A DNA stretch of 64,000 nt from positions 2,484,972-2,548,971 of the forward strand of contig NC_015732.1 of NCBI RefSeq assembly GCF_000219725.1. The letters run 5' to 3'. Each line of letters begins with the position of its first letter. The stretch's first letter is position 1. Shown in pieces: positions 1-15,703 of this stretch. The notes beneath the pieces are model-generated. The model made no database searches and had not been told where the DNA came from. It saw only the letters and a program-made list of their open reading frames with translations. The stretch is from Gracilinema caldarium DSM 7334 (GTDB taxonomy: Bacteria; Spirochaetota; Spirochaetia; Treponematales; Breznakiellaceae). Made by a program: the position numbers and the translations under genes.

Positions 1-1164
1 GCAGATTCTTCTCTGGGTCGGGATGGCTACCTGTATATTTCCGATCAGAATGGAGAGCTGGTTTTTGCACCGGTAAACCAAACCATCTACCGGATCGCAC
101 CCCGGCAAATAGAGGGCTCAGAAGGGAGAACACTCCGCCGATGTAACCATGAAGTATTTCAGATCCTGTACAAACAGTCATCCTATACCGGATGGACCAC
201 CGCTGGAGTTTTTTCGATACAAAGTGTTCTCCGCGAAGTTTCTTTTATACGGTTTTACGCCCTAATTGTTGGAAGTTTCACCGTCCTCCTGGCCATTTTG
301 CTTTCGGTATTCTTTGCATCTTCCATAGCACTCCCCGTAGAAAAATTGCGTAGTTTGATGCGACAGGCTGAAACGGGAGATTTCTCCATCCGGTTTTCTG
401 AAAACCGTCAGGACGAGATCGGCCAACTCGGACACTCTTTTAATCGTATGATATTGGAAATCAGCAACCTGATCGACCAGGTATACCATGAACAACAACG
501 GAAACGAGAGACCGAGTTACGGGTTCTGCAAGAACAGATAAAACCGCACTTCCTATACAATACCCTCGATACCATTCAATGGATGGCCCAGGAACATAGA
601 GCCCAAGATATAGTAGACATGGTGAGCGCCTTAACCCAGCTATTTAGGGTTGGACTTTCTAAGGGTCAAGAAATGATACCTCTCCGGGAAGAACTCAGAC
701 ATGTGGAAAGCTATTTATTTATCCAGAAGGTCCGATATGAGGATAAGTTTGATTACACCATTTCTATAAGCCCTGGCATTGACCAGCTACGGGTGCTCAA
801 GGTGATTTTACAGCCCCTGGTAGAAAATGCCATTTATCATGGGATAAAGGAACGACGGGGTAAAGGGCACATCCTGGTTAGTGCTGAACGTGAGGGACCA
901 GACCTATTCCTGACCGTGGAAGATGACGGTATTGGAATGCCAGCAGACAAACTGGCACAACTGCAGGAAGAACTAAAGTCCAGTCATCAGTTGCATACAG
1001 ACAGCCATAAAGATTGGGGTGAAGGGGGGCATATCGGGTTCGGTGCCAGAAATGTCCATGAACGGATATTTTTAAATTTTGGACCCGATTATGGCATTAC
1101 CTACCAAAGCACCTGGGGTGTTGGTACCCGGGTTACCATCCGACATCCAGCAATAGAAGTATAA
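1..1164 (+). CDS. sensor histidine kinase, YesM/LytS type (HAMP + His_kinase + HATPase_c); 5' end lies outside the window
   Basis: The frame-1 ORF is open from base 1 with no stop. The translation has a HAMP-like segment, the FLYNTLDTIQW His-kinase motif and an N-box LVENAIYHG plus DDGIGM ATPase motif. The stop is TAA at 1162-1164. Confidence 0.85.
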   Translation, partial: ADSSLGRDGYLYISDQNGELVFAPVNQTIYRIAPRQIEGSEGRTLRRCNHEVFQILYKQSSYTGWTTAGVFSIQSVLREVSFIRFYALIVGSFTVLLAILLSVFFASSIALPVEKLRSLMRQAETGDFSIRFSENRQDEIGQLGHSFNRMILEISNLIDQVYHEQQRKRETELRVLQEQIKPHFLYNTLDTIQWMAQEHRAQDIVDMVSALTQLFRVGLSKGQEMIPLREELRHVESYLFIQKVRYEDKFDYTISISPGIDQLRVLKVILQPLVENAIYHGIKERRGKGHILVSAEREGPDLFLTVEDDGIGMPADKLAQLQEELKSSHQLHTDSHKDWGEGGHIGFGARNVHERIFLNFGPDYGITYQSTWGVGTRVTIRHPAIEV

Positions 1165-1179
1165 CACGGGAAAAAAACT

Positions 1180-2394
1180 ATGTGGAAAGTACTAATCGCC
1201 GATGATGAACCTAAAATCCGCCGAGGTATCCGTTCTGTCCTTGAGCGGCTTGATTCGGAAATTGAGGTGGTTGCCGAAGCAGGCGACGGCGAGGCGGCCC
1301 TTGCTCTGGCTGAGGAGACAATCCCGGATATCCTCTTTATCGATATTCGTATGCCCTTCTTAAATGGTCTTGAATTAATTGAAAAACTTTCTGGCCTTCC
1401 CCATGACTGGATTATTATTATCGTGAGCGGACACGATGAATTTGAGTATGCCAGAAAAGCAGTATCTCTTAAAGTCTTTGAGTATCTCTTAAAACCGGTA
1501 CAAGAAGCTGAAATAAAAAGAACACTGGAACACGCTAAAAATGAACTTGCCCTGCGGCGAGAAACAAATCGGTACATTAACTGGGCAAGAGAGAAAATAA
1601 CTGAACACCGAAGTACTCTGCAAGAACAATTTATTCTGGAATGGCTTTCATCATCCCTTTCGAAAACTGACATTGAAGACTGTTCCAAATTCCTGGGGCT
1701 TACCTTGCCAGAAAAAGCGGTGGTGCTTGCTATTCGGCTGGAGGAAAAGGTACTCTCAGTAGGAAGTTTGCAAGCTGGTTACCGGACCATTCTTATCTAT
1801 TCAGTACAATCAATTATTCAAGAACAGTTAGGTAAGGATATAATCTGCGTAATAGATAGAGATGATACGATTATTACCCTATATCCAGGGGATCTACAAG
1901 TATTACAAAATAAGATCCTTGGCATCGAAGCCGCTATTGAAGCGACAACCCATCAACATCCAATTATAGCAGTAGTGCCCAGCGGAAATTATAGAAAAGA
2001 AGGGCATCGCACGATACAGGAATCCTATGAAGAGGCCCTATCGGAGCTGACCAAGAAGGGAAATTACCAAACCTTTGTGCTCCTGGCTCAGGGATATATC
2101 GAAAAAAACTATCAATACCCGGATTTATCATTAGAGGAAACCGCATCGGAATTGGAAATCAGCCCAGGCTATTTGTCCCGGCTGCTTAAACAAGCAACCG
2201 GTTACTCCTTTGTAGAATATGTGAGCAGAGTTCGGATCCAGCATGCCCTGCAGTTATTAACAGATCCGGCAATAAAGATCTATGAAATTGCTGAAAAGGT
2301 AGGCTATCGTAGCCAGCATTACTTTAGCAGGGCTTTTAAACAGATACTGGGTATATCTCCCATCGAATACCGAAAGGGAGGCAGCTTACCATGA
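1180..2394 (+). CDS. two-component response regulator with REC domain and C-terminal AraC-type HTH (YesN-like)
   Basis: The N-terminus MWKVLIADDEPKIRRGIRSVL with DIRMP and VSGHDEF is a typical receiver domain. The C-terminus has AraC HTH signatures (ETASELEISPGYLSRLLKQ and IAEKVGYRSQHYFSRAFKQ). It starts 16 nt after the kinase stop and overlaps the next gene with ATGA. Confidence 0.85.
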   Translation: MWKVLIADDEPKIRRGIRSVLERLDSEIEVVAEAGDGEAALALAEETIPDILFIDIRMPFLNGLELIEKLSGLPHDWIIIIVSGHDEFEYARKAVSLKVFEYLLKPVQEAEIKRTLEHAKNELALRRETNRYINWAREKITEHRSTLQEQFILEWLSSSLSKTDIEDCSKFLGLTLPEKAVVLAIRLEEKVLSVGSLQAGYRTILIYSVQSIIQEQLGKDIICVIDRDDTIITLYPGDLQVLQNKILGIEAAIEATTHQHPIIAVVPSGNYRKEGHRTIQESYEEALSELTKKGNYQTFVLLAQGYIEKNYQYPDLSLEETASELEISPGYLSRLLKQATGYSFVEYVSRVRIQHALQLLTDPAIKIYEIAEKVGYRSQHYFSRAFKQILGISPIEYRKGGSLP

Positions 2395-4289
2395 AACGGT
2401 ATATCCAGCCTTCATTCATCCTCATTGCCCTTGGCATTATGGTCCTAGCCGTTTCCTTGCTCTGGTTTGTGAATATTCTACCCCTTATTTCATACAATAA
2501 GGTAGAGCCAGAAGTTGGCAAACTCATAGGCCTTTCACAGGCCAACCTTTCAGAACCATGGCGCATCAGCATGACGGAAGAAATAACCCAGCAGGCAAAA
2601 AAATACCTCGATATGCGGGTAATTATTACTGATGCGGTAGATTCCAGCGAACGCCAGGTTGATGATGTGAAACGGCTCCTTGCCTATGGCATCGATCTCC
2701 TTATCATCTCGCCGACAGATTCGCAGATTCTGACCCCCGTCGTAACTGAAGCGTATAAAACTATTCCAGTGATTGTACTGGATCGGGCAGTGGAAGGCTA
2801 TGATTACACCCTGTATATCGGTCCGGACAACCAGCTCATTGGTCGCGAGACGGGTCGCTATGTCTCAGAATTATTGGGAGAAAAGGGCGGTCAGGTCTGG
2901 GAAATTCAGGGCCGCTCAGGCTCTCCGCCTACCATCGACCGAAGTACCGGTTTACGGCAGGAAATTGAGCGACATCCCGGGATCAGATTGGTCAAAACAG
3001 TCACCGCCGATTGGCTCCGGGACCAAGCTGAGGATACCCTCTCTCATTTATTTAAAACCACCCCAACGCCCGATGTCATCGTATCCCAGAATGACGCCAT
3101 GGCCTATGGGGCAATTTTAGCAGCGAAGAAAGCAGCGGTTTCAAATATCAAATTCATCGGGGTAGATGGACTGGAGGGTGCCAATGGGGGCCTAGACCTG
3201 GTACGGAAGGGACTCCTATCAGCCACTTTTATTTGCCCCACCGGCGGAAAAGAAGCGGTAAACTACGCCTGGGATATTCTAGAAAAGAAACCCGGCATTC
3301 CCAAAAAAATATATTTACGCACAAGAAAGATAACCGCCGAAACAGTTAATGCTAATGTGGATCCCTATGCGTCATTCCGGCATCCCCGCTCCAACAAGGA
3401 ACCCATACGCCTCGGCTTTGCCCAGGTAGGAAGCGAAAGCCGTTGGCGGCTTACCAATACAAAATCGATAAAAGATGCGGCCCGTGACGCCGGCATTGAG
3501 CTTACCTTTATAGACGGCCAGCAAAAGCAGGAAAACCAGATTGCAGCGATCAGGTCATTTATCAAACAGAAGGTGGACATCATCGCCTTTTCACCGATTG
3601 TCGAATCAGGCTGGGAAGAGGTGCTCCAGGAAGCAAAAGCCGCAGGGATTCCGGTTATTCTTTCTGACCGGGAAGTAGATATAAAAGATGACTCCCTTTG
3701 GGCTACCTTTATCGGCTCAGATTTTCTAGAAGAGGGCCGACGGGCCGCCCGGTGGCTCCTGTCCTATATAGAACATCATCCTACCCCAGATGGTCAAGTT
3801 AATATCGTGGAACTCCAAGGGACGGTAGGTTCAGCTCCTGCCATTGACCGGAAACGGGGCTTTGAGCTAACCCTGGAACCTCATCCAGAGTTCCGCATCA
3901 TCCGATCGGAAATTGCCAATTTTTATTTCGATCAGGGCCGGGATGTGATGAAAAAAATCCTTGAAACGGAAAAGAGACGGATTGATGTCCTCTTTGCCCA
4001 CAATGATGATATGGCTCTGGGAGCAATTCAAACACTTGAATCAGCAGGACTGCGACCGGGAAAGGATATGGTGATCGTCTCGGTAGATGCGGTAAAGGAA
4101 GCCTTTCAGGCTATGATTGCGGGTAAACTCAACTGTACCGTGGAATGTACTCCCCTCCTGGGGCCCCAATTAATGAAAGTAATCCAGGATTATTTTGATG
4201 GAAAGGAACTACCCACCCGGATTATCACCAGTGAAGAAGTATTCCCCGCCGAGGTAGCCCGAACAGTACTGCCAAAACGTCGGTATTAA
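2391..4289 (+). CDS. membrane-anchored protein with two tandem periplasmic sugar-binding (PBP type I) domains; likely co-sensor for the upstream kinase
   Basis: It has an N-terminal hydrophobic helix (FILIALGIMVLAVSLLWFV). Residues ~50-330 look like a LacI/RbsB-type periplasmic binding fold. Residues ~335-632 are ~65% identical by eye to the adjacent YtfQ-like binding protein. The ATGA overlap with the regulator implies translational coupling. Confidence 0.75.
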   Translation: MKRYIQPSFILIALGIMVLAVSLLWFVNILPLISYNKVEPEVGKLIGLSQANLSEPWRISMTEEITQQAKKYLDMRVIITDAVDSSERQVDDVKRLLAYGIDLLIISPTDSQILTPVVTEAYKTIPVIVLDRAVEGYDYTLYIGPDNQLIGRETGRYVSELLGEKGGQVWEIQGRSGSPPTIDRSTGLRQEIERHPGIRLVKTVTADWLRDQAEDTLSHLFKTTPTPDVIVSQNDAMAYGAILAAKKAAVSNIKFIGVDGLEGANGGLDLVRKGLLSATFICPTGGKEAVNYAWDILEKKPGIPKKIYLRTRKITAETVNANVDPYASFRHPRSNKEPIRLGFAQVGSESRWRLTNTKSIKDAARDAGIELTFIDGQQKQENQIAAIRSFIKQKVDIIAFSPIVESGWEEVLQEAKAAGIPVILSDREVDIKDDSLWATFIGSDFLEEGRRAARWLLSYIEHHPTPDGQVNIVELQGTVGSAPAIDRKRGFELTLEPHPEFRIIRSEIANFYFDQGRDVMKKILETEKRRIDVLFAHNDDMALGAIQTLESAGLRPGKDMVIVSVDAVKEAFQAMIAGKLNCTVECTPLLGPQLMKVIQDYFDGKELPTRIITSEEVFPAEVARTVLPKRRY

Positions 4290-4398
4290 TGCATTTCTCA
4301 GTGCGTTATCGTACACAAAATTATGGAATCCTCTAAATACATATTCTCCAAGGGGTGCCACAATATTGGTATCAACGAAGCCCACAAAGGAGGCATGT

Positions 4399-5358
4399 AT
4401 GAAGAAATCCTTACAAGTTTTTGCGGGAGTGTGCGCACTCATCACCCTGGTGTCTCTGAACGCCTTTGCTCAGAGCAATAAAAAAATTGTGCTCGGGTTC
4501 TCCCAGATCGGGGCAGAAAGCGAATGGCGGACCGCCAACACCGAATCCATTAAGGCGGCTGCAGCTGCAGCGGGCATTGAACTAAAATTTGCCGATGCCC
4601 AGCAAAAGCAGGAAAACCAGATTAAAGCCATCCGCTCCTTTATTGCCCAGAAGGTAGATGTGATCGCCTTCTCACCGGTTGTAGAAACCGGTTGGGAAAC
4701 GGTGCTTCAGGAAGCCAAGCGGGCAAAAATTCCTGTTATTCTTACTGATCGAGCAGTTAATGTCAAAGATGATAGCCTTTATGTATCCTTTATGGGATCC
4801 GACTTTGTCGAAGAAGGCAGACGTGCTGCGGTCTGGCTCATGGGCTACCTGCACACCGACAAACCAGTAAACATTGTGGAACTCCAGGGCACCGTTGGTT
4901 CTGCTCCGGCCATCGACCGTAAGCGTGGTTTTGAGGAAATGCTGAAGCCCTTCCCCAATTATAAAATCATCCGTTCCCAGACCGGTGACTTTACCCGTGC
5001 CAAGGGCAAGGAAGTCATGGAAGCGTTCCTGAAGGCAGAAGGTAAGAATATCAATGTCCTCTTTGCCCACAATGACGACATGGCAATTGGTGCCATCCAG
5101 GCTATTGAAGAATTCGGACTAAAACCCGGAAAGGATATCATCATCGTATCCATCGATGCTGTAAAGGGCGCCTTCGAAGCAATGATCGCCGGTAAACTCA
5201 ATTGCACCGTGGAATGCTCTCCTCTGCTTGGAGAGCAGCTCATGGCTGCTGTTAAAGATCTGATGGCAGGAAAAACATTACCCAAACGGATCGTTACCAA
5301 TGAAGGTGTATACCCCGCAGAATTTGCGGCCCAGGTATTCCCCTCCCGCAAGTACTAG
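4399..5358 (+). CDS. ytfQ: ABC transporter periplasmic sugar-binding protein, YtfQ-like (galactofuranose-type CUT2 family)
   Basis: Signal peptide MKKSLQVFAGVCALITLVSLNAFAQ. An AAAGGAGG RBS sits 5 nt upstream of the ATG at 4399. The PBP-I fold matches YtfQ, and it is followed by a tandem-ATPase gene and two permeases as in ytfQRT-yjfF. Confidence 0.7.
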   Translation: MKKSLQVFAGVCALITLVSLNAFAQSNKKIVLGFSQIGAESEWRTANTESIKAAAAAAGIELKFADAQQKQENQIKAIRSFIAQKVDVIAFSPVVETGWETVLQEAKRAKIPVILTDRAVNVKDDSLYVSFMGSDFVEEGRRAAVWLMGYLHTDKPVNIVELQGTVGSAPAIDRKRGFEEMLKPFPNYKIIRSQTGDFTRAKGKEVMEAFLKAEGKNINVLFAHNDDMAIGAIQAIEEFGLKPGKDIIIVSIDAVKGAFEAMIAGKLNCTVECSPLLGEQLMAAVKDLMAGKTLPKRIVTNEGVYPAEFAAQVFPSRKY

Positions 5359-5376
5359 GGCTACTTGGTAACTACA

Positions 5377-5411
5377 GGGGCGTTTCGGCGTAAACCGGAA
5401 CGCCCTTTTTT
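5377..5411 (+). terminator. GC-rich hairpin plus T-run between the SBP and ATPase genes (partial terminator or attenuator)
   Basis: GGGGCGTTTCGGCG-TAAA-CCGGAACGCCC is followed by TTTTTTAT, directly after the ytfQ-like stop and before the RBS of the next gene. Confidence 0.55.
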
Positions 5412-5430
5412 ATCAAAGGAGAATTACAGC

Positions 5431-6972
5431 ATGGAAAATATTGAAATTCTTTCCATGGTTAACATTTCAAAGTATTTTCCCGGAGTCAGGGCCCTTTCAC
5501 AGGTTAATTTTTCCTTAAAAAGCGGAGAAATTCATGCCCTTATGGGGCAGAATGGAGCCGGGAAATCCACATTAATAAAAATAATGACCGGAGTATATCA
5601 ACCTGACTCGGGTCACATGTATCTTCGAGGGGAAAGCATAAAAGTAGAATCCCCTGAACATGCTCAGACCCTGGGAATCGCGACCGTTTACCAGGAAGTA
5701 AATCTTTGCCCCAATGTAACAGTTGCAGAGAACCTTTTGCTCGGACGAGAACCACGGAATCTCATAGGTATTAAATGGAAGCATCTTTTTGAGGAAGCCC
5801 ATAAAATTATTAAAGAAAAATTGGACCTTGATCTGGACACAACAAAACCTCTTGGTTCTTACTCTCTGGCAATTCAACAAATGATCGCTATTGCCCGATC
5901 CCTCTGTGTGAAATCGGACATTTTAATACTTGATGAACCAACTTCGAGTCTTGATGAAGCCGAAGTTGAGCGGCTGTTTTACATTTTGCGTAAGTTAAAA
6001 AATGAAGGAATGGCGATTCTCTTTATAACTCATTTCATAGATCAGGTATATGCCGTATCCGATCGGATTACGGTTCTGCGGAACGGCGAATACATAGGAA
6101 CCGCAGAGGCCTCTGCATTATCCAAACTCGAACTCATTAGCATGATGGTTGGTAAGGATCCAGCAGAACTTGCAGCAACAGCAACCAGGCAGGAAGTAAA
6201 ACTTTCCCATGGTACCGAGGAGCTTCTTAAAGTTGATGGATTGGGCCGTACTGGCTATCTTAAACCCATCAACATAAGCTTAAAAAAAGGCGAAGTTCTC
6301 GGCCTGGCAGGGTTACTCGGCTCAGGACGTACGGAGACTGCAAAACTGATATTCGGGGCCGAACGGGCACTTGAAGGTAAATTATTCCGGAATGGGCAGG
6401 AAGTTGCCTTATCCGCCCCCCGGGATGCCATTATGGTTGGAATGGGATTCTGTCCGGAGGACAGAAAAACCGAAGGCCTTATTGGCGACCTTTCCATCCG
6501 GGAGAATATCATACTCGCATTGCAGGCAAAACAGGGTATCCTAAAATACATACCCCGGAAGACTCAGGAGGAAATTGCAAATCAGTTTATTAAAGAACTG
6601 GGTATAAAGACCCCCGATGCGGAACGACCGGTCAAAACCCTATCCGGCGGCAACCAGCAGAAGGTACTACTTGCCCGATGGCTTGCAACAAAACCGGCTA
6701 TACTCATTTTAGATGAACCAACCAGAGGAATTGATGTGGCCGCCAAAAGTGAAATTCTACAACGTATTTTACAATTAAGGAATGAAGGCCTGTCGATAAT
6801 ATTCATTTCATCGGAGTTGGAAGAAGTATCAGCTATCAGCGACCGGGTTGCGGTTTTCCGGGATAAAAAAAAGATTGCTGAAATAGAAGGTACTGAAATT
6901 AATGAGCATACCATTATGCGTCTTATTGCCCAGGAGGAGCTAGAAAATGAAAAACAAGTTAAAGCGAATTAA
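5431..6972 (+). CDS. ytfR: sugar ABC transporter ATP-binding protein with duplicated ATPase domains (YtfR-like)
   Basis: Two Walker A motifs (GQNGAGKST and GLLGSGRT), two signature motifs (LSGGNQQK) and two Walker B motifs (ILILDEPT). An AAAGGAG RBS lies before the ATG at 5431. Confidence 0.8.
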   Translation: MENIEILSMVNISKYFPGVRALSQVNFSLKSGEIHALMGQNGAGKSTLIKIMTGVYQPDSGHMYLRGESIKVESPEHAQTLGIATVYQEVNLCPNVTVAENLLLGREPRNLIGIKWKHLFEEAHKIIKEKLDLDLDTTKPLGSYSLAIQQMIAIARSLCVKSDILILDEPTSSLDEAEVERLFYILRKLKNEGMAILFITHFIDQVYAVSDRITVLRNGEYIGTAEASALSKLELISMMVGKDPAELAATATRQEVKLSHGTEELLKVDGLGRTGYLKPINISLKKGEVLGLAGLLGSGRTETAKLIFGAERALEGKLFRNGQEVALSAPRDAIMVGMGFCPEDRKTEGLIGDLSIRENIILALQAKQGILKYIPRKTQEEIANQFIKELGIKTPDAERPVKTLSGGNQQKVLLARWLATKPAILILDEPTRGIDVAAKSEILQRILQLRNEGLSIIFISSELEEVSAISDRVAVFRDKKKIAEIEGTEINEHTIMRLIAQEELENEKQVKAN

Positions 6973-7999
6973 CGACACCACCTTATTCTGGCCCTTTATG
7001 GTCCTTCTTTTATTGTTATTGATTAATGCATTTTTAACGAAAGGATTTTTTTCAATTGAATGGAAGGATGGCCGGTTCTCCGGCATCCTTGTTGATATTC
7101 TAAATAGGTCTACCTATATCGGTATCATTGCCATTGGACTGACTCTGGTAATTTCCACCGGCGGAATCGATATATCGGTGGGATCCGTGGTTGCTATTTC
7201 CGGAGCTATTGCAGCATACCTTATCGGCGGAGAATTAATCTTGCAGGGGGACCAACAGGTACTAGTTACCCGGACCCCTATGGGAGTTGCTATTACAGCG
7301 GCTCTCTTATCCGCCCTTATTTTAGGGATGTGGAATGGGTTTCTCGTTTCACGACTCCGAATCCAGCCAATTGTAGCTACCCTGATCCTTATGGTCGCAG
7401 GAAGGGGCATCGCCCAGCTGGTTACCAACGGACAAATTATCACCATTTATTACAAACCTTACTATTTTATTGGAAACGGCACCTTTCTTGGCATCCCCTT
7501 TTCATTGTATATTCTGCTTGCTGTTCTGATACTGGTCATCCTCGCAACAAGAAAGACTGCCCTGGGACTCTTTTTTGAATCGATCGGCGTGAATAGAACT
7601 GCAAGCCGTTACTCAGGAATACAGGAACAACGGATCGTGTTCTGGTCTTATGCATTCTGTGCTTTCTGTGCCGGTGTCTCGGGGCTTCTAGTAAGTTCCA
7701 ATGTAAAAAGTGCCGACGGAAACAACGCGGGAGACCTCTTTGAACTGGATGCCATTTTAGCAGTAGTTATTGGCGGTACTTCTCTAAATGGGGGCAAATT
7801 CAATCTGGCAGGCTCTATTCTCGGGGCGGTCATTATTCAGACCCTGACAACAACCATCTATTCTATCGGAGTACCGCCCCAGGTCAACTTAGTTATAAAG
7901 TCCATCGTTGTATTTTTAGTGAGCATGCTTCAGTCGGAAAACTTTAGAGCCCTGTTCCGCTTTGGCCGCAAGAGCTTTCAGATGAGAGGCGCTTTATGA
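6947..7999 (+). CDS. ytfT: sugar ABC transporter permease (YtfT-like, CUT2 family)
   Basis: Multi-span hydrophobic protein in the AraH/RbsC permease family. Its start overlaps the ATPase 3' end. Confidence 0.75.
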   Translation: MKNKLKRINDTTLFWPFMVLLLLLLINAFLTKGFFSIEWKDGRFSGILVDILNRSTYIGIIAIGLTLVISTGGIDISVGSVVAISGAIAAYLIGGELILQGDQQVLVTRTPMGVAITAALLSALILGMWNGFLVSRLRIQPIVATLILMVAGRGIAQLVTNGQIITIYYKPYYFIGNGTFLGIPFSLYILLAVLILVILATRKTALGLFFESIGVNRTASRYSGIQEQRIVFWSYAFCAFCAGVSGLLVSSNVKSADGNNAGDLFELDAILAVVIGGTSLNGGKFNLAGSILGAVIIQTLTTTIYSIGVPPQVNLVIKSIVVFLVSMLQSENFRALFRFGRKSFQMRGAL

Positions 8000-8991
8000 A
8001 ACAGATTGATAGAAAACATCTGCCCTTTATTGTCACCGTGAGTCTCTTTATTGTAATGTACAGTGCTGGTTCCATCGCCTACCCAAATTTTCTTTCAATC
8101 CAGGTGTTCATCAACCTGTTTATTGATAATGCCTTTTTAGGGATTGCGGCGGTAGGCATGACCTTTGTCATCCTATCTGGCGGGATTGATCTGTCTATGG
8201 GATCCGTAGTTGCCTTAGTCACGATGATCTCCGCGGACCTGCTGCGAAAGGATGTGCCACCGGCGGTGGTGATCCCGGTGGTACTTCTTGCAGCTTCCGG
8301 TATTGGACTCTTTCAGGGTATCATGATCCAGTTTTTTAAGGTGCAACCCTTTATCGCAACCCTGGCGGGGATGTTCTTTGCCCGGGGAGCTTGCTACCTC
8401 ATCAGCATAGATACCATCAATATTGAAAATGATTGGTATCGGGATGTTAGCATGGCTGCTATAGAGTTGCCAACCGGCGATTTTATTTCAGTTAACGTCT
8501 TGATTTTTGTAGTCTTTGCCATAGTCGGATGGTGGTTACTGCGCTTTACCCGTTTCGGAAGAACCGTTTATGCCATAGGGGGTTCGGAGCAATCGGCCCT
8601 ACTCATGGGCTTGCCAGTTAATCGAACCAAAGTTTTAATTTATACCTTTAATGGCTTTTGTTCAGGCCTGGCAGGCATTGTGTTTACTTTTTATATGCTT
8701 TCCGGGTATGCACTTCACTGCAAGGACCTGCACATGGATGCCATTGCAGCGGTCGTCATGGGCGGAACCCTTTTAACTGGCGGCGTCGGATCCATTGGCG
8801 GCTCTATCATGGGGGTTCTGATTCTAGGAACCATCCAGACCATCATCAATTTCCAGGGAACCTTAAGTTCCTGGTGGACCCGAATTGTGGTGGGCATCCT
8901 AATATTTGCATTTATATTGATGCAAAGCCTTTTGAATCGGCCTATGAAAGTTACCAATAAGAACAGCAAACAAGAACAAAACGCAGCCTAA
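7996..8991 (+). CDS. yjfF: sugar ABC transporter permease (YjfF-like, CUT2 family)
   Basis: It is the second CUT2 permease paralog. Its start overlaps the previous stop with ATGA. Confidence 0.75.
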   Translation: MKQIDRKHLPFIVTVSLFIVMYSAGSIAYPNFLSIQVFINLFIDNAFLGIAAVGMTFVILSGGIDLSMGSVVALVTMISADLLRKDVPPAVVIPVVLLAASGIGLFQGIMIQFFKVQPFIATLAGMFFARGACYLISIDTINIENDWYRDVSMAAIELPTGDFISVNVLIFVVFAIVGWWLLRFTRFGRTVYAIGGSEQSALLMGLPVNRTKVLIYTFNGFCSGLAGIVFTFYMLSGYALHCKDLHMDAIAAVVMGGTLLTGGVGSIGGSIMGVLILGTIQTIINFQGTLSSWWTRIVVGILIFAFILMQSLLNRPMKVTNKNSKQEQNAA

Positions 8992-9039: not shown

Positions 9040-11229
9040 TTATTCAGCTCTAAACCTGAAAATAATGCTTTGATTTTCCTGTAAAGGATAGGGTAATAAT
9101 AACCCCACCTGCATTAATTCTTCTCCCCAAAATACTTTCCCATCGCCTAACAGTCTGTATTTATAGTTTGATTGTAATCCCTTCAATCGCACTATTCTGA
9201 AAACATCATTTGCTTCAGTTCGTAATAATACAAAGGTTACCAATACTTCTCGTTTATCCTTTGATACGTAGCTCCATGAAGTGTACACTAAAGGGAACTC
9301 TTCATTATCTAATCGATATAGATCACCAAATTGTACAAGAGGGCGTATCTCTTTATAAAATGATACCTGTTCTTTAATTTCTGTTTTATCTGCTTCAGTT
9401 AGTCTTGTTAAATCTAATTCATAACCAAAATTGCCTGCCATTGCTACCGCACCACGCAACGATAAGGGGACAACTCTTCCGGTCTGATGATTTGGTACAG
9501 TGGAGACATGGGCTCCCATAGTAATTGCGGGATATGGGATAGTTGTACCCTTTTGGATATAAATCCTAGAAATTGCATCTGTATTATCACTGGTCCATGT
9601 CTGAGGCATATAATACAACATGCCCGGATCAAACCGTCCGCCACCTCCAGAACAACTTTCAAAAAGAATATCTGGAAATGAAGAGGTAATCCGTTCTAAT
9701 ATTTCATAGAGGCCAAGAACATAACGATGAGAGATTTCACCTTGTTGAGAGGAAGAAAACGCAGATGAACCGATCTCAGTTAAATGTCTATTCATATCCC
9801 ATTTAACATACGATATTGGAGCACTGCTTAAAACCATCGTGATTGTTTCAATTATATACTCTCTTACTTCGCGACGTGTCAAATCGAGCACTAACTGGTT
9901 CCGTCCTTCGGAACGTGAACGATTGGGAACATGCAGACACCAATCTGGATGCGTTTTATATAATCTACTTTCAACAGATACCATCTCTGGCTCTACCCAA
10001 ATACCAAATTTCATGCCAAGCTTGTTGATCTCTTCAGCTAAAGTTTTTAACCCGCCTGGTAATTTGTGTTTATCAGGAAACCAATCACCAAGAGAGCGTT
10101 TATCATCTTTTCTGTTGTCAAACCAGCCATCATCGAGAACAAATAATTCTATTCCGAGAGGGGCTGCCTCTTTTGCAAGAGAGACTAATTTATCTTCGTT
10201 AAAATCGAAGTAGGTACCTTCCCAATTATTAATGAGTATCGGACGAACCGTATCACGGTATTTTCCCCGGCACAAACGTTTCCGATATAAATCATGAAAT
10301 GTCCGGGACATGTCTCCCAAACCGTTTCTACTATAAACCATTACAACTTCTGGTGTCTGGAATTGTTCCCCCGGATTTAAAACCCAATTAAAATTCAGCG
10401 GGTTAATTCCCATCATAACTCGTATCATTTCAAATTGATCTACTTCTACCTGAGCAAGGAAATTGCCTGAATAAACCAGATTAAAACCAAAAACTTCACC
10501 GTGGTCTTCATCAGCATCAGGAGAAAGAATAGCAATAAATGGGTTCTGTTGATGACTACTGGTTCCTCGACGACTTTCTATGGATTGCATTCCTGGAACC
10601 AGAGATCGGGTATATATATGACGTTCACGGCAGTGGGCCCCTGATAGCTGTAAGAGCTTATACTTTTTATTGGGAAAATCAAGACTAAAACTCATTGTTT
10701 GTAATAAGGAGATGCAATTTTCTGAATCATTTATAAATCTGACATTTCTTGTAATGACATCAAATTCATTCCAAACTGTATATGAAAGAATACAACGCAA
10801 TCTTCCTACTGGATCAAATAGAATAATTTCCAGCGTGTCTGCTTCTTGATTATTTTCTATATATGTACCAGGCAATTTATCTAAACCTGGTTTCCCTTTT
10901 ATAATACGATATTCTTTATACCATAAGTCAGCAACTCTGCTGCCATCTTGATACTGAATTGTATAGGCTGGCGAGCGAAAATCTGTTCTTCCATATCCAG
11001 GATATTCTTGTGGTAATGTATCTAAAGAAAAAGTCCTGTCATCCGGTTCAGGATTAGGAGAAAACGAGCGATCTATAAACTGTAATGAATACGACCCATT
11101 CCATTCTTGCAAGATACTATACCAACCAAGATGCGCAACATATTTTCCACGAACAATCTGAATAATATAACTTGAATGTATGGTTTTTAGATGAAACACG
11201 TTATGCTCAGGCGAATAGGTAATACTCAT
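9040..11229 (-). CDS. alpha-galactosidase, glycoside hydrolase family 36 (melibiase/raffinose type)
   Basis: 729-aa product with GH36 hallmarks (FVLDDGWF, KFGIWVEPEMV, CSGGGGRFD). The likely start is the ATG for MSITY at 11229, preceded by an AAGAGGA RBS. Confidence 0.85.
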   Translation of the reverse strand: MSITYSPEHNVFHLKTIHSSYIIQIVRGKYVAHLGWYSILQEWNGSYSLQFIDRSFSPNPEPDDRTFSLDTLPQEYPGYGRTDFRSPAYTIQYQDGSRVADLWYKEYRIIKGKPGLDKLPGTYIENNQEADTLEIILFDPVGRLRCILSYTVWNEFDVITRNVRFINDSENCISLLQTMSFSLDFPNKKYKLLQLSGAHCRERHIYTRSLVPGMQSIESRRGTSSHQQNPFIAILSPDADEDHGEVFGFNLVYSGNFLAQVEVDQFEMIRVMMGINPLNFNWVLNPGEQFQTPEVVMVYSRNGLGDMSRTFHDLYRKRLCRGKYRDTVRPILINNWEGTYFDFNEDKLVSLAKEAAPLGIELFVLDDGWFDNRKDDKRSLGDWFPDKHKLPGGLKTLAEEINKLGMKFGIWVEPEMVSVESRLYKTHPDWCLHVPNRSRSEGRNQLVLDLTRREVREYIIETITMVLSSAPISYVKWDMNRHLTEIGSSAFSSSQQGEISHRYVLGLYEILERITSSFPDILFESCSGGGGRFDPGMLYYMPQTWTSDNTDAISRIYIQKGTTIPYPAITMGAHVSTVPNHQTGRVVPLSLRGAVAMAGNFGYELDLTRLTEADKTEIKEQVSFYKEIRPLVQFGDLYRLDNEEFPLVYTSWSYVSKDKREVLVTFVLLRTEANDVFRIVRLKGLQSNYKYRLLGDGKVFWGEELMQVGLLLPYPLQENQSIIFRFRAE

Positions 11230-11246
11230 ATTTATTCCTCTTATTG

Positions 11247-11300
11247 CGTTTTTATAAAAATACACGTACTCCTTAAATGTAAAGAGAAGTACGTGTATTT
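11247..11300. terminator. inverted repeat between the SBP gene and the alpha-galactosidase gene (internal terminator or processing hairpin)
   Basis: AAAATACACGTACT ... AGTACGTGTATTT form a 13-bp stem around a 16-nt loop. On the minus strand it is followed by TTTTATAAAA. Confidence 0.45.
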
Positions 11301-11312
11301 GTTTCTGATTAT

Positions 11313-12665
11313 TTATTTAAACAGATCAAGAATTTTTTTATTCGCGTCCTTAAGTCCAGCTTCAGGAGTCACCTTTCCGATAAAAATTGCATCGAAGGTC
11401 TGAGTCATTATTTCACTGATTTTTACTCCATTTTCAACGACTGGATATACAAAGGTACCATTTTTCTCATTAGCTTCATCTGTAAAGGCGGTTACATTGA
11501 TGTTTTTAGAAGTATATGCTTTTAATGCTTCATCAACACCAGCTTTGATTGCGGGGAATACAACTCCATAACTACCAACAATCTTCTGAGCCTCTTCTGA
11601 AGCGAGATATTTGACCCATTGCCAGGCTTCTTCTGGATGTTTTGTACCTACCCAAATAGAATCCGCAAGACCATTTATCATACTGCGTCGACCAACTGGC
11701 CCTACGGGAAGTTTGGCAAAACCAACCTTAAAGGGAGAACTGCTGGTATAATAGCCAATCATCCAGGAGCCATCGAATACTGTTGCAGCTTTTTTTGACG
11801 TAAAAAGTGAATTTGCTCCGTTTACAGTATCTTCATAGGAAGCCATATAGCCCTTTTTAGTGACCCTTACCATCCATTCAATTGTTTTAATAAAACGCGG
11901 ATCATCAAAATGGAAATTCGCATTGTACAGTCCATCCGTATACATCCATCCAGTACTAACGGCCAGAGGACTAAATTGTGCTTGCCCTCTGTCATCACTA
12001 TGATTTAATGCTATTCCATACTGAACTACATTATTTGCATCAAAACTGGGATCTAGACCATTTTTACCATTTTTATCGATAGAAAGTTTTGCGATAAATT
12101 TTTCAAAAGTTCCACCATCATTTGGATTCCAGGTTAATTCATTTGCTTCCTTTTCAGAAATTCCTGCAGCCTTTAGCATTTCCGCATTATAAACGATCGC
12201 AATAGTATCCCAATCTTTCGGAAGCCCATATCGCTTACCATCTTTTGTTGCCCAGAGTCCGGCTAAACCATTCATGTATATCGAAGTATCTACATTATCC
12301 CGCTTAACAAGAGGAGTAATGTCTACCAATTGTTTTTTTGAAGAAAAGTCCGGGTATTTTGCCAGGTGGTTCGTAAATACATCTGGAGCAGTACCGCTGA
12401 CCATATCGGTCTGCAGTGCAGTCCAATAATCCCCCCACCCTAATTGTTCAATTTTAATTTGAATGTTGGGATTTTTTGCCATAAAGCTTTCCGCAACTTT
12501 CTGATATGCGGGTAACTGATTCGCATCCCAGAGTACATATCGTATGGTAACTTTCCCACTACTTTTACTGGTACTCTGTTTTGCATCCTCACTGGTGCCT
12601 GAAGCAAACACCATACTGGATATGGCAATTGCCATAACCATTAAAACCAAGCTTCTCTTTTTCAT
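11313..12665 (-). CDS. extracellular solute-binding protein family 1 (CUT1 sugar ABC transporter SBP)
   Basis: Signal or lipoprotein-like N-terminus MKKRSLVLMVMAIAISSMVFASG. A GGAGGA RBS lies before the ATG at 12665. The fold matches MalE/MsmE-type oligosaccharide binders. Confidence 0.8.
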   Translation of the reverse strand: MKKRSLVLMVMAIAISSMVFASGTSEDAKQSTSKSSGKVTIRYVLWDANQLPAYQKVAESFMAKNPNIQIKIEQLGWGDYWTALQTDMVSGTAPDVFTNHLAKYPDFSSKKQLVDITPLVKRDNVDTSIYMNGLAGLWATKDGKRYGLPKDWDTIAIVYNAEMLKAAGISEKEANELTWNPNDGGTFEKFIAKLSIDKNGKNGLDPSFDANNVVQYGIALNHSDDRGQAQFSPLAVSTGWMYTDGLYNANFHFDDPRFIKTIEWMVRVTKKGYMASYEDTVNGANSLFTSKKAATVFDGSWMIGYYTSSSPFKVGFAKLPVGPVGRRSMINGLADSIWVGTKHPEEAWQWVKYLASEEAQKIVGSYGVVFPAIKAGVDEALKAYTSKNINVTAFTDEANEKNGTFVYPVVENGVKISEIMTQTFDAIFIGKVTPEAGLKDANKKILDLFK

Positions 12666-12721
12666 AAGCTTCTCCTCCAAAACCATATGTTATTCCAAGG
12701 GCCAGGCCCGGAATTTTCGAT

Positions 12722-13624
12722 TTAGCGGAACCCCGAAAAACCAATCGAATCTACTATTTTTCTTCCAAAAAGAATGAAAATACCGAAGGTAGGTATCATA
12801 GCCAGAGTAGTCCCTGCCATCATACCGCTCCAATCAGGCTGTCCTTGCGGTGTTTGCAACCGGAAAATTGCAAGCGCAACGGTAAGGGTTCGTATACTTT
12901 CTTTTTTACCCACAATTAGTGGCCACATATAATCATTCCATGCAGTGATAAAGGTGATTACCGCTAAAGTTGTCAGTGCAGTAGTACTAATCGGAAGAAT
13001 TACCTCAATAAATGTTTTCAAGTATCCAGCCCCATCAAGGTAGGCAGCTTCTTCCAATTCCTTGTTAATACGCAAAAAGAATTGTCTCAGAAAGAAAACG
13101 GCAAAAGGGGTCATCAGCAATGTTGGTGCCATAATCCCCCAATAAGAATTTAATAAGCCTAATTGCTTTACAAGGATAAAATTGGGAAGCATAGTGACAA
13201 TCCCTGGTATCATCAAAGTAGAGACATAGAGACTAAACAAATTATCACGAAATCTGAAATGCAGGCGGGCAAACGCATAGGCTGCCATAGAAGAAAATAA
13301 AACTTGAAAAAAGGTAACCCCTATTGAAACCAGAAATGAGTTATAAATATTTAAGAAGAAATTTACCTTCTGGCCGGAACCACCCATTTTTATTGCTGTT
13401 TCAGAATCAATTAATCCCAAAACGCGGGCATAATTTAACAAAGTAGCATGAGGTGGCCATAGTGCGGTAGGATTTGCAAAAACAGATTGTTGTGGTGCTA
13501 CGGATGTTCGAAAAACCCAATAAAATGGAAAAAGGGTTAAAAATAGAAATAAAACTACTATTATAAATACTGCCATTTTATATAACATGTTCGTTCTTTG
13601 GTTGATTGATAAGGAGTTCTTCAT
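12722..13624 (-). CDS. sugar ABC transporter permease (MalG/MsmG-like)
   Basis: Has the EAA-loop motif (EAAYLDGAGYLKTFIEVILP) and six predicted TM segments. Confidence 0.8.
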   Translation of the reverse strand: MKNSLSINQRTNMLYKMAVFIIVVLFLFLTLFPFYWVFRTSVAPQQSVFANPTALWPPHATLLNYARVLGLIDSETAIKMGGSGQKVNFFLNIYNSFLVSIGVTFFQVLFSSMAAYAFARLHFRFRDNLFSLYVSTLMIPGIVTMLPNFILVKQLGLLNSYWGIMAPTLLMTPFAVFFLRQFFLRINKELEEAAYLDGAGYLKTFIEVILPISTTALTTLAVITFITAWNDYMWPLIVGKKESIRTLTVALAIFRLQTPQGQPDWSGMMAGTTLAMIPTFGIFILFGRKIVDSIGFSGFR

Positions 13625-13636
13625 ATCTGTATTCCT

Positions 13637-14530
13637 TTAAAAGTCTGACTCATTTGCTCTGGACAATCGCATCTGCAAAAAGCTGATACCAATTAATATG
13701 AGGAAAAGGACCATCGAAACTGCAGTGGCATATCCCATACGATAACTTTCAAAACCATTTTTAAATATATACAAATAAATAACATACGTTGCGTTTACAG
13801 GCCCACCTTTTGTGGTAACCGCAATCGTATCGTATATTTGAAACGAACCAATAACAGAGGTAATGACAACAAAGGCAAGAACAGGTTTTAAGTAGGGGAT
13901 GAGAATTGTAAAAAATCGTTTCCAGGGGCCAGCACCATCAATTAATGCGGCTTCTTCGACTTCTTTAGGAAATCCTTGAATGCCTGCAAAAACAATTAAA
14001 GCCGTATATCCCATATGGCGCCAGATATTTATAGCTGCTACTGATGGTAACGATAGGGTATCAGAAAAAAGGAATGGAACAGATTTAAAACCGACAGCTT
14101 TAATTATTTCATTAATAATACCAATTGCGGGATCCATCATCCAGAGCCAAAGAAGGGCAACTACAACATTTGGTAACAACCATGGAATAAGAAACAAGCT
14201 TCTTACCAACACGGAAGAAGTAGATCGTTCCATAATCATGGCAAGCAGTAATGCTAAAACAGTTTGTATTGGTATATTCCAGAGGACATACTGAAACGTG
14301 ATAAAGAGAGAATGCCAGAAATCTGGATCAGTAATCAGTGCCTTATAATTTTTAAAACCAATAAATTCAGCCTTACTTAATAAATCCCAGTTTGTAAAAC
14401 TTAACCAAAAACCACGTAACGTAGGTACTAGGAAAAACATGCTGAATCCAATCAAGCTCGGGAAAATGAAGAAAAGGGCTATTATATGCTCTCTTGTGGT
14501 ATGTGATGAAACATTCTTTATGCCTTTCAT
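13637..14530 (-). CDS. sugar ABC transporter permease (MalF/MsmF-like)
   Basis: Has the EAA motif (EEAALIDGAGPWKRFFTILIPYLKP). An AGGAGG RBS lies 9 nt before the ATG at 14530. Confidence 0.8.
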   Translation of the reverse strand: MKGIKNVSSHTTREHIIALFFIFPSLIGFSMFFLVPTLRGFWLSFTNWDLLSKAEFIGFKNYKALITDPDFWHSLFITFQYVLWNIPIQTVLALLLAMIMERSTSSVLVRSLFLIPWLLPNVVVALLWLWMMDPAIGIINEIIKAVGFKSVPFLFSDTLSLPSVAAINIWRHMGYTALIVFAGIQGFPKEVEEAALIDGAGPWKRFFTILIPYLKPVLAFVVITSVIGSFQIYDTIAVTTKGGPVNATYVIYLYIFKNGFESYRMGYATAVSMVLFLILIGISFLQMRLSRANESDF

Positions 14531-14698
14531 CCTTTCACACCTCCTATTCAAAACTATACTACGATTTGTAAAATCTGTAAAGTTATAATGTAAATATTTT
14601 CTAATTATCTGAAATTTATTTCTATTATTTTAATTAATTCTCCATAATCATATATTTACAAGACCTTCACTTTAGATATAATTGGTTCAGAGAAAATT

Positions 14699-15703
14699 AT
14701 GACTATACAAGAAATAGCACTGGAAGCAGGTGTATCAACTGCAACTGTATCCCGAGTAATTAATAATCAGCCGGTAAGCAAAGAAAAGCGGGAATTGGTT
14801 GAGGGAGCGATTCGTCGCTTAAATTATTTGCCCGATGATCTGACTCGTAGACATTTGGGAACCCCCTACAAAGCTGTAGCTGTCCTAACCCATAGCATGA
14901 CTAATCCATATAGCATGGAGTTTGTTGAAACAATTATAGATAGATATGAAGAATTGGGGATAAATGTATATGTAAGCAGGAATGAAACTGCTGACATTGA
15001 GTATCGCTGCCTTGCGGATCTGCTTGCCCGGGGTGTTGAAGGCATTATTCTCCACGATCCACCTTTTAAAAACTACGAGACCGGCCTATTTACAAAGATT
15101 TCTGAACGATTACCCCTTGTTATTGTACATTCTTTTAATCAAGTTTTGGAAATGAATGAAGTTGTTGTGGACCAATACTACGGTATGAAAAAAGTAATGT
15201 CCCACCTCATCGGGCTTGGACACCGGGATATTCTGTTTCTCAGAAATAAAATTGGTTATTCATTAGATTTAAAAGAAAAAGTATGGAGAGAGGAACTTAC
15301 CCTGGCCGGGACGCCTCCAAAGGATAATTATGTATTAGTAATTCCTGATGCTGACAAAGAAGCAGGAATAAAAGAAACTGAAGATATTGTACGAGAGTTC
15401 TTTGTCTCGAATAAAAGGCCCACAGCAATATTTGCAGCCAATGATATGATGGGGGTAGGGGCACTTAATGTGATTAAAGAGCTTGGACTGAGAGTCCCGG
15501 AGGATATTTCTGTTATCAGTCATGACAATACAATGCTTGCCGCTAGTTATCATTTAAGCTCTGTGGACCTTAAAATTAAAAGTGTCGCCCATGCGGTCGT
15601 CGATTTAATGCAGTATGTTGTCAATGGCCACGATAAAGAGCCACGGAGAATCATGATCACCCCGGAGCTTATCCTCCGTGGTTCCACAGCGAAAATTGGA
15701 TAG
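14699..15703 (+). CDS. LacI family transcriptional regulator
   Basis: N-terminal HTH (MTIQEIALEAGVSTATVSRVINN) plus a periplasmic-binding-like effector domain. It is transcribed divergently from the ABC/alpha-galactosidase operon. Confidence 0.85.
   Translation: MTIQEIALEAGVSTATVSRVINNQPVSKEKRELVEGAIRRLNYLPDDLTRRHLGTPYKAVAVLTHSMTNPYSMEFVETIIDRYEELGINVYVSRNETADIEYRCLADLLARGVEGIILHDPPFKNYETGLFTKISERLPLVIVHSFNQVLEMNEVVVDQYYGMKKVMSHLIGLGHRDILFLRNKIGYSLDLKEKVWREELTLAGTPPKDNYVLVIPDADKEAGIKETEDIVREFFVSNKRPTAIFAANDMMGVGALNVIKELGLRVPEDISVISHDNTMLAASYHLSSVDLKIKSVAHAVVDLMQYVVNGHDKEPRRIMITPELILRGSTAKIG

Follow-up and report, generated by a model that had tools for sequence, protein, structure and literature searches.

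Gene Organization of the Locus

The 64,000-nucleotide stretch of the Gracilinema caldarium DSM 7334 genome that was analyzed here (contig NC_015732.1, positions 2,484,972 to 2,548,971; the window hereafter, with positions counted from its first base) contains within bases 1-8991 seven genes, all on the plus strand, that encode a sensor histidine kinase, a response regulator, a membrane-anchored protein with two periplasmic-binding-protein domains in tandem, and a sugar ATP-binding cassette (ABC) transporter with its own free binding protein. The present study concerns the tandem protein, which we call the co-sensor, and its relationship with the free binding protein encoded next to it. A first-pass annotation of this DNA, whose gene coordinates were correct, had taken the likeness of the two as the trace of a recent duplication, whereas the results presented below indicate an old fusion.

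The kinase gene (1..1164, frame 1 open from base 1) runs off the start of the window, and the 3' part that is present encodes the end of the extracellular domain, a transmembrane segment, and then the Pfam domains HAMP, His_kinase (PF06580), and HATPase_c. The full-length orthologues of this kinase (loci L081, L082, L084, and L085) have 587-626 amino acids and carry a dCache_1 extracellular domain, giving the architecture dCache_1-HAMP-His_kinase-HATPase. The next gene (1180..2394) encodes a YesN-like response regulator composed of a receiver domain and an AraC-type helix-turn-helix domain (Pfam Response_reg, HTH_18, and HTH_AraC). It is followed by the co-sensor gene (2391..4289; 632 amino acids, two Pfam Peripla_BP_4 domains), whose ATG codon at 2391 overlaps the stop codon of the regulator gene (ATGA, 2391-2394) and which is translationally coupled to it. 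From its N terminus the co-sensor consists of a transmembrane anchor (residues 6-29, 2406..2477), which is hydrophobic after K2/R3 and helical in the AlphaFold2 (AF2) model; a disordered tether (residues 30-38) in which the predicted local distance difference test score (pLDDT) falls below 50; an N-terminal binding domain (N-domain; residues 44-315, 2520..3335) that belongs to a clade of co-sensors and has 2x7x as its best relative in the PDB; and a C-terminal binding domain of the GafA/YtfQ type (C-domain; residues 340-632, 3408..4286) that matches the NCBIfam family YtfQ_transport with 409 bits.

The free periplasmic substrate-binding protein (4399..5358; 319 amino acids) has a signal peptide and a single Peripla_BP_4 domain and belongs to the same GafA/YtfQ family (YtfQ_transport, 394 bits). 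Its gene is separated from the co-sensor gene, on the same strand, by a spacer of 110 nt, and its ATG codon at 4399 is preceded by the ribosome-binding site AAAGGAGG. The genes that follow encode a YtfR/GafB-like ABC ATPase with two ABC_tran domains according to Pfam (5431..6972; YtfR_transport, 677 bits), a YtfT-like permease recognized by Pfam and NCBIfam (6947..7999), and a YjfF-like permease (7996..8991; Pfam, and NF008630 with 427 bits at a cut-off of 363). According to the best NCBIfam matches, the last four genes encode a YtfQ/YtfR/YtfT/YjfF galactofuranose transporter; of the four proteins, YjfF alone exceeds the equivalog cut-off, and the YtfR and YtfT families are the best matches for the ATPase and the first permease with scores under the cut-offs. 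This make-up, a binding protein with a fused ATPase of the YtfR type and two permeases (YtfT and YjfF), matches that of the GafA/YtfQ systems. In turn, a kinase with HAMP and PF06580 that is paired with a receiver-AraC regulator is what is found in three-component sugar sensors, and the linkage of a dedicated binder gene to the kinase and regulator genes, beside the transporter's own binder, is kept in 14 genome loci and in four further loci.

A conserved element (4300..4341, plus strand) with half-sites of the ATCGT/ATCCT type about 21 bp apart is located upstream of the binding-protein gene. It reads AGTGCGTTATCGTACAC ... AATCCTCTAAATACA in the window and has the shared form AGTGCGTTATCGTACAC ... 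AATC[CG]TCTAAATAC, and it hardly varies between the intergenic regions of L081, L082, and L085, in contrast to its flanks. With this pattern of conservation, the element may be regarded as a candidate operator of the AraC-type regulator.

Identity between the C-domain and the Adjacent Binding Protein

When the co-sensor (residues 333-632) was compared by BLASTP with the binding protein (residues 25-319), 197 of 300 positions were identical (66%, with 80% positives and an E value of 1e-141). The identity of about 65% claimed in the first-pass annotation is thus accurate, and the three identical runs that it quoted, NIVELQGTVGSAPAIDRKRGFE, VLFAHNDDMA.GAIQ, and MIAGKLNCTVEC.PLLG, were all found in the alignment. 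The alignment is also nearly gapless, as had been described, since the gaps total 5 positions; these are nevertheless distributed over three small indels, one of 1 position at the domain boundary and two of 1 and 3 positions in the loop at residues 459-468, rather than forming a single 5-residue indel. The N-domain, in agreement with the annotation, is only distantly related to the binding protein (28% identity, E value of 2e-27).

The 66% identity, the long identical runs, and the adjacency of the two genes, together with the existence of stand-alone sensors resembling the N-domain, are the observations that favor a recent duplication of the adjacent binder gene in this lineage, with the copy becoming fused to a pre-existing anchored sensor protein. 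The nucleotide sequences do not bear out such a recent origin. The aligned codons of the C-domain and the binding protein show 66% nucleotide identity, and the codon is the same at 47% of the 189 sites with an identical residue, versus 39% predicted from codon usage. A run of 22 identical residues contains 11 third-position differences, and the longest exact nucleotide run shared by the two genes is 25 nt. No tract of raised third-position identity was found along the alignment, the values ranging from 0.33 to 0.63. By the Nei-Gojobori method, the proportion of synonymous differences (pS) is 0.73, i.e. saturated, with 2.6 synonymous (dS) and 0.27 nonsynonymous (dN) substitutions per site. In the comparison of the window with its nearest relative, in which the C-domains are 91% identical, dS is already about 2.2 with a dN of 0.07, and the dN value between the C-domain and the binding protein is about four times as large. 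Because the synonymous sites are saturated and no tract stands out from the rest, the split between the two sequences is old and shows no sign of gene conversion.

A different way in which two old paralogues could have been kept alike is repeated gene conversion. The genes lie 110 bp apart on one strand, and the identity between the C-domain and the binder of the same locus peaks in the Treponema clade and in Pelosinus (61-66%) with 42-52% elsewhere, which would be in agreement with this explanation. However, besides the lack of a raised synonymous tract and the short longest run of 25 nt, the C-domain is as similar to foreign binders (66% in Anaeromyxobacter and 65% in Sorangium) as to its own, and C-domains and binders fall into separate clades across genomes. 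Concerted evolution is thus highly improbable.

Across 15 genomes, the identity between the C-domain and the binder of the same genome ranges from 42 to 66%. Within the Treponema clade it stays at 62-66%, while the orthologues span 75-97%; at four further loci of this clade, the C-domains are 76-91% and the binders 87-97% identical to their counterparts in the window, with a cross-identity between C-domain and binder of 60-67% at all of them. A steady cross-identity combined with a higher identity between orthologues fits two orthologous lineages that parted earlier. Moreover, the C-domain shows much the same identity (63-67%) to each of the free binders compared, and therefore the 66% figure represents the family background and not a special tie to the neighboring protein. 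Taken together, these data indicate that the identity of the C-domain to its neighbor reflects an unusually slow evolution of the family, probably under the constraint of the same ligand, rather than recency or gene conversion.

Phylogeny of C-domains and Binders

A neighbor-joining tree was built from corrected p-distances (88 sequences, 292 columns, 100 bootstraps) with C-domains, adjacent binders, free binders, and E. coli YtfQ, the N-domains being used as outgroup. The C-domain of the window was placed among the spirochaete C-domains, in a clade with a support of 91/100. The binding protein of the window grouped with the binders of the Treponema clade and then with free binders from Pelosinus, Myxococcota, and Betaproteobacteria, with no C-domain inside this group (96/100). 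None of the 100 bootstraps paired the two sequences as sisters, so that the claim that the binder of this transporter had been duplicated has to be abandoned; the annotation itself had named a non-sister placement as the result that would speak against it.

In agreement with the tree, free binders from Anaeromyxobacter, Aquabacterium, Sorangium, and Variovorax share 78-84% identity with the binding protein, and in a ranking of the relatives of the binding protein the C-domain comes only 24th. More than 60 foreign free binders, from proteobacterial and myxobacterial genomes, resemble the window binder more closely than does the C-domain. Of the 80 genome loci, 66 are plain transporter loci that encode neither kinase, regulator, nor two-domain protein; the binders of these loci show 66-83% identity to that of the window.

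The clade of the binding protein is 77-88% identical between phyla, compared with 51-70% for the ATPases encoded by the same operons. Since the binder of this clade is more conserved than the ATPase of its operon, an identity of 60-70% between domains of the GafA type says little about age. The permeases of the same operons are 55-77% identical, and the binder (4399-5358) is the most conserved component of the transporter in the comparisons with L011, L013, L015, L028, L005, and others, which is the reverse of the usual pattern of ABC importers. The 83% identity to Anaeromyxobacter could in principle have come from a horizontal transfer confined to the binding-protein gene, but this was judged unlikely because the binder is the most conserved component in every pair examined, including pairs of two proteobacteria.

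Distribution and Age of the Two-domain Architecture

A database search returned more than 120 full-length two-domain homologues of the co-sensor (about 620 amino acids, 58-91% identity) from Treponema, Rectinemataceae, Spirochaetaceae, and other Spirochaetia, the closest of which (91% identity) is encoded by a metagenome-assembled genome of Treponema sp. When one genome per species was scanned, the two-domain gene was found flanked by kinase, regulator, and gaf-type transporter genes in several groups, i.e. Spirochaetota, Pelosinus (Negativicutes), Bacillus sp. SD088, Gracilibacillus, two Clostridium genomes, and Butyrivibrio, and the kinase-regulator-binder synteny is conserved across the two-domain loci. 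An exhaustive search of the representatives of 50%-identity clusters revealed at least 20 clusters in which one alignment extends over both domains, down to 27-30% identity. The fusion is therefore not confined to a narrow lineage with unfused close relatives, as would be expected of a recent event, but occurs in every relative of the Treponema clade as well as in Rectinemataceae, Pelosinus, Bacilli, and Clostridia.

To these observations can be added that the distances between N-domains and those between C-domains are correlated in 35 two-domain proteins (Mantel r of 0.80, exceeded by 0 of 2000 permutations). Both domain trees recover the same groups: the Bacilli; Pelosinus with the homologues P0121 and P0125; Butyrivibrio with P0124; the spirochaetes; and the divergent P0134 and P0137. 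The correlated distances of the N- and C-domains point to one old fusion. On these comparisons the two-domain sensor appears to be an old fusion that has been vertically co-inherited, its halves having probably been together since early in the history of the family, and the C-domain appears to have parted from the lineage of the present transporter binders before the family had become distributed over Spirochaetota and Bacillota.

The saturated synonymous sites, the absence of a sister relationship in any bootstrap, the closer foreign binders, and the occurrence of the fusion across two phyla and no fewer than 20 clusters leave a recent duplication with virtually no chance of being correct. 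A clean and recent capture of a transporter binder would, if true, have offered a textbook case of how sensors evolve, but it is wrong for this locus. What stands from that proposal is that a C-domain of the YtfQ/GafA type was appended to a different, membrane-anchored sensor domain; it was neither a copy of the adjacent binder nor a recent acquisition.

Some variation was observed among the two-domain loci. In two metagenome-assembled spirochaetes (L008 7878-9757 and L020 7881-9773) the two-domain gene is split by a frameshift, and these may be pseudogenes or assembly errors. The Rectinemataceae-type loci carry between the co-sensor and binder genes a conserved gene, absent from the window, for a secreted protein of about 230 amino acids with the motif TLTCVGLYSETSDGY.SYR (L001 9759-10666, L002 9780-10730, L004 9762-10703, and L008 9758-10615). 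The binders of the Rectinemataceae type form a faster-evolving clade and are only 52-58% identical to that of the window.

Stand-alone Relatives of the N-domain

The first-pass annotation had advised a survey for the unfused arrangement, and stand-alone homologues of the N-domain indeed exist in a kinase-regulator context, at the loci L088 and L089. Single-domain homologues of the N-domain, either membrane-anchored or lipoproteins, make up many 50%-identity clusters, and a metagenome scan with one N-like protein returned a single locus. The N-domain of the window is 46-48% identical to the stand-alone co-sensors of L088 and L089. The genes at L088, which is metagenomic, encode an ATPase, a permease, a binding protein, a dCache kinase, a regulator of the AraC type, and one N-like binder; the kinase shares 49% identity with that of the window, and the lone binder 48% with the window N-domain. 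The transporter binder of L088 belongs to the N-like family (39% identity to the N-domain) and not to GafA.

The locus L089 is a gaf cluster of Clostridium beijerinckii (JACAZL010000001.1, 608720-625667) with a single-domain co-sensor. The regulator gene comes first, followed by the genes for the single N-like binder, a binding protein of the GafA type, the ATPase, two permeases, and the dCache kinase, and the cluster adjoins araA. It is syntenic with the two-domain locus L010 of Clostridium sp. C8-1-8, the transporter proteins of the two loci being 75-82% identical, and its single binder is 57% identical to the L010 N-domain and ends where that domain ends. The published study on GafA treats the C. 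beijerinckii gaf cluster only through its regulation by AraR (PMC10191376), and the co-sensor, regulator, and kinase genes at L089 suggest an additional layer of extracellular sensing over AraR.

In a tree of N-domains, those of the two-domain proteins and the stand-alone co-sensors formed one clade (97/100) apart from the N-like transporter binders, with a poorly resolved backbone inside, and the clostridial single-domain proteins grouped with the N-domain of L010 (100/100). Judging from these loci, an N-like domain alone appears to be sufficient beside a gaf-type transporter, whether this state is ancestral or the result of a loss, and this is the main reason to assign the contact with the kinase to the N-domain.

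These single-domain proteins also bear on the possibility that the two-domain protein is not primarily a sensor but a tethered second substrate binder that feeds the YtfRT-YjfF translocator and would widen or increase uptake, in analogy to the tandem binding domains of GlnPQ. A C-domain with the full GafA pocket and 66% identity to the free binder, perhaps including the surfaces that dock to the permease, speaks for such a role, and in the Bacilli loci L006 and L007 the two-domain gene is located directly upstream of the ATPase gene, the usual position of the binder. Nevertheless, a separate free binder is always encoded too, the co-sensor gene is translationally coupled to the regulator gene with the kinase-regulator-binder order conserved, and single-domain members of the N-domain clade hold the position of the sensor binder in three-component loci. 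Furthermore, in the CuaDSR system it is the sensor binder, and not the transport binder, that contacts the kinase (PMC10384115). A role in transport is thus the less probable one, although it deserves some weight.

Ligand Pockets and Predicted Structure

The ten classical pocket positions of RbsB were mapped by joint alignment, a procedure that reproduced the published R38 and D111 of YtfQ (PMC10191376). At nine of these positions the residues are S-W-R-D-R-R-F-N-D in E. coli YtfQ, in the window binder, and in the window C-domain alike, and they include W37, R38, D111, R112, R167, F191, N220, and D248 in the numbering of the E. coli precursor. At the tenth position the window binder and the C-domain have the same residue, and E. 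coli YtfQ differs. The N-domain has an intact pocket with E-W-R-D-R-R-W-N-D at the nine positions. In 69 homologues with at least 58% identity, the pocket residues of both domains are invariant, except for one N-domain position that is nearly so. GafA proteins bind D-galactofuranose and/or L-arabinofuranose through identical first-shell residues, the selectivity being set by second-shell details (PMC10191376), and the C-domain is accordingly predicted to be, most likely, a site for L-arabinofuranose and/or D-galactofuranose. The suggestion of the first-pass annotation that regulation is coupled to the ligand of the transporter is therefore plausible at the level of sequence, since the C-domain and the binder share their pocket residues.

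The AF2 model of the co-sensor, which was based on 69 sequences, has a pLDDT of 88.9 and a predicted template modeling (TM) score of 0.83, with a linker of lower confidence at residues 316-339. According to Foldseek searches of the PDB, the C-domain model superposes on the ligand-bound GafA structures 6hbd, 2vk2, and 5ocp with TM scores of 0.91-0.93 and root mean square deviations of 1.6-1.8 Å, and the N-domain is closest to 2x7x, the fructose-binding sensor domain of BT1754 (38% identity, E value of 6e-53, TM score of 0.88). No solved chain in the PDB spans both domains, the query-normalized TM score being at most 0.45.

A divergent sub-family of two-domain proteins (P0134, P0137, P0154, P0191, P0202, P0208, and P0261) shares the motif NGYSRI and has most of the canonical pocket residues of the C-domain replaced, the D-R pair having become G/D-N, for example, which suggests a changed ligand or a non-binding role for the C-domain of these proteins. 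Some representatives, in which the N-domain is at 44-53% identity and the C-domain at about 25%, raised the idea that unrelated C-domains have been swapped onto a constant N-domain; this was not supported, although no rigorous test was made. The C-domains of low identity keep the motifs SPV..GW[DE], NGYSRI, and FAH[ND]E, so that they resemble diverged family members whose pockets have changed rather than members of other families.

The largely replaced pocket of the divergent sub-family is also what would be expected if the C-domain were a structural or regulatory appendage that no longer binds sugar, e.g. a scaffold for dimerization or for docking to the kinase. In the sub-family to which the window co-sensor belongs, on the contrary, the nine pocket residues are those of E. 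coli YtfQ and invariant in 69 homologues, and the modeled domain superposes closely on ligand-bound GafA, which makes such a non-binding C-domain quite unlikely.

Other Features of the Window

On the opposite strand, downstream of the transporter genes, are encoded a GH36 alpha-galactosidase (9040-11265), a CUT1 binding protein (11313-12686), and two permeases (12722-14551), and this locus adjoins a plus-strand gene for a LacI-family regulator (14699-15703). The region 9040-15703 is probably a raffinose/melibiose utilization cluster. Further downstream are located an RtcB RNA ligase gene (16862-18289) and an open reading frame (22301-23764) with the transposase domains DDE_Tnp_1_2 and DUF772, which is an insertion sequence.

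Discussion

The genes that make up the locus, their synteny, the families and conserved pockets of the domains, and the great age of the fusion can be read from the sequences themselves. We consider it likely, with a probability of roughly 70%, that the co-sensor is an old two-domain fusion that works in a three-component sugar sensor beside a transporter that it probably controls. According to this proposal, the kinase, the regulator, and the two-domain protein would form a sensor of the CuaDSR or XylFII-LytS-YesN kind, in which coupling to the dCache domain of the kinase would fall to the tethered N-domain and the C-domain would contribute a furanose site of the same specificity as the transporter. 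The closure induced by the sugar would activate the kinase, and the phosphorylated regulator would bind the repeat upstream of the binding-protein gene and switch on the transporter operon.

Several points weigh against this proposal. The domain that would touch the kinase has been assigned solely from the existence of single-domain relatives. The trees are of the neighbor-joining type only, the backbones of both the N-domain and the C-domain trees are poorly resolved, and the rooting is uncertain, with the N-domains as root turning the C-domains into a basal grade; as a consequence, the trees are compatible with descent of the C-domain from a transporter binder as well as with the opposite course, and with more than one number of fusions or losses. 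The 100/100 grouping of the clostridial single-domain proteins with a two-domain N-domain means, in addition, that the single-domain state in Clostridium may be due to loss of the C-domain and not be ancestral. The C-domain and the free binder score 409 and 394 bits against the NCBIfam family NF041827 (YtfQ_transport), below its cut-off of 510, although it is the best hit for both. Finally, a scan of positions 4150-4500 for sigma-70 promoter and terminator consensus sequences found nothing.

The proposed arrangement has well-characterized counterparts. In CuaDSR of Ruminiclostridium cellulolyticum (PMC10384115) and XylFII-LytS-YesN of C. beijerinckii (PMC8050422), a dedicated binder that is distinct from the transport binder binds the extracellular domain of the kinase and induces the neighboring ABC operon, and dedicated sensor binding proteins are also known from LuxPQ and HptRSA (PMC8050422). 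The locus of the window shares with CuaDSR and XylFII-LytS-YesN a kinase of the YesM type (HAMP and PF06580), a regulator of the YesN/AraC type, and a dedicated extracytoplasmic binder, distinct from that of the transporter, encoded beside the kinase and regulator genes. In those systems the target is the adjacent sugar ABC operon and both binders recognize the same sugar, and the genes of the window suggest a similar relationship. In contrast to the co-sensor, with its two Peripla_BP_4 domains and its transmembrane anchor, the sensors CuaD (a lipoprotein of the cluster-D type) and XylFII (one Peripla_BP_4 domain) are single-domain proteins, and LytS has a four-helix bundle where the kinase of the window has a dCache_1 extracellular domain. 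XylFII (5XSJ) was not among the PDB sequence matches of the co-sensor at an E value of 1e-10 or lower.

As to the transporter, the pocket and the four-gene make-up are the same as in the GafABCD/YtfQRT-YjfF systems (E. coli YtfQ, 2VK2; Mycobacterium smegmatis MSMEG_1712, 6HBD/6HBM; Shewanella GafA, 5OCP; PMC10191376). The characterized Gaf systems differ in that neither a kinase-regulator pair nor a fused sensor copy of GafA has been reported for them, and a term search of the GafA study found no mention of two-component, sensor, or histidine kinase (PMC10191376). BT1754, a hybrid two-component system of Bacteroides thetaiotaomicron (2X7X), provides the closest solved relative of the N-domain and likewise uses the binding fold for signaling and not for transport; its binding domain is nevertheless part of the kinase polypeptide, whereas here it belongs to a separate anchored protein together with a second binding domain. 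LuxP of Vibrio harveyi is also a Peripla_BP_4 binder that signals through a kinase, LuxQ, with a dCache-like periplasmic domain (PMC8050422). In contrast with the co-sensor, LuxP is free and single-domain and senses autoinducer-2, with another kinase family and output. Two binding folds in series on a membrane-tethered polypeptide, as in the co-sensor, are present in the tandem substrate-binding domains of GlnPQ of Lactococcus lactis and in the tandem Venus-flytrap domains of BvgS, but these are type II folds fused to a permease in GlnPQ and to a kinase in BvgS, whereas the co-sensor has type I folds and is a separate protein with only an anchor. A two-domain co-sensor made of type I binding proteins was not found in the literature searched or among solved structures. 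Thus, although three-component sugar sensors and GafA transporters are known, the two-domain type I co-sensor is apparently uncharacterized.

Because the two conserved pockets differ between the domains (E-W-R...W in the N-domain and S-W-R...F in the C-domain, each strictly conserved), it is conceivable, as a tentative reading, that the co-sensor is a two-input receptor in which two sugars, or two ring forms of one sugar, are reported to one dCache kinase and jointly gate the induction of the furanose transporter. The pyranose and furanose forms of L-arabinose or D-galactose would be an example of such ring forms.

The single-domain and two-domain versions of one locus, in C. beijerinckii and Clostridium sp. 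C8-1-8, respectively, constitute a natural comparison of what the second domain contributes. The two-domain co-sensors are a widespread and apparently uncharacterized family, tied to transporters of furanoses (arabinose/galactose) and present in spirochaetes and Firmicutes from gut, peat, and soil samples.

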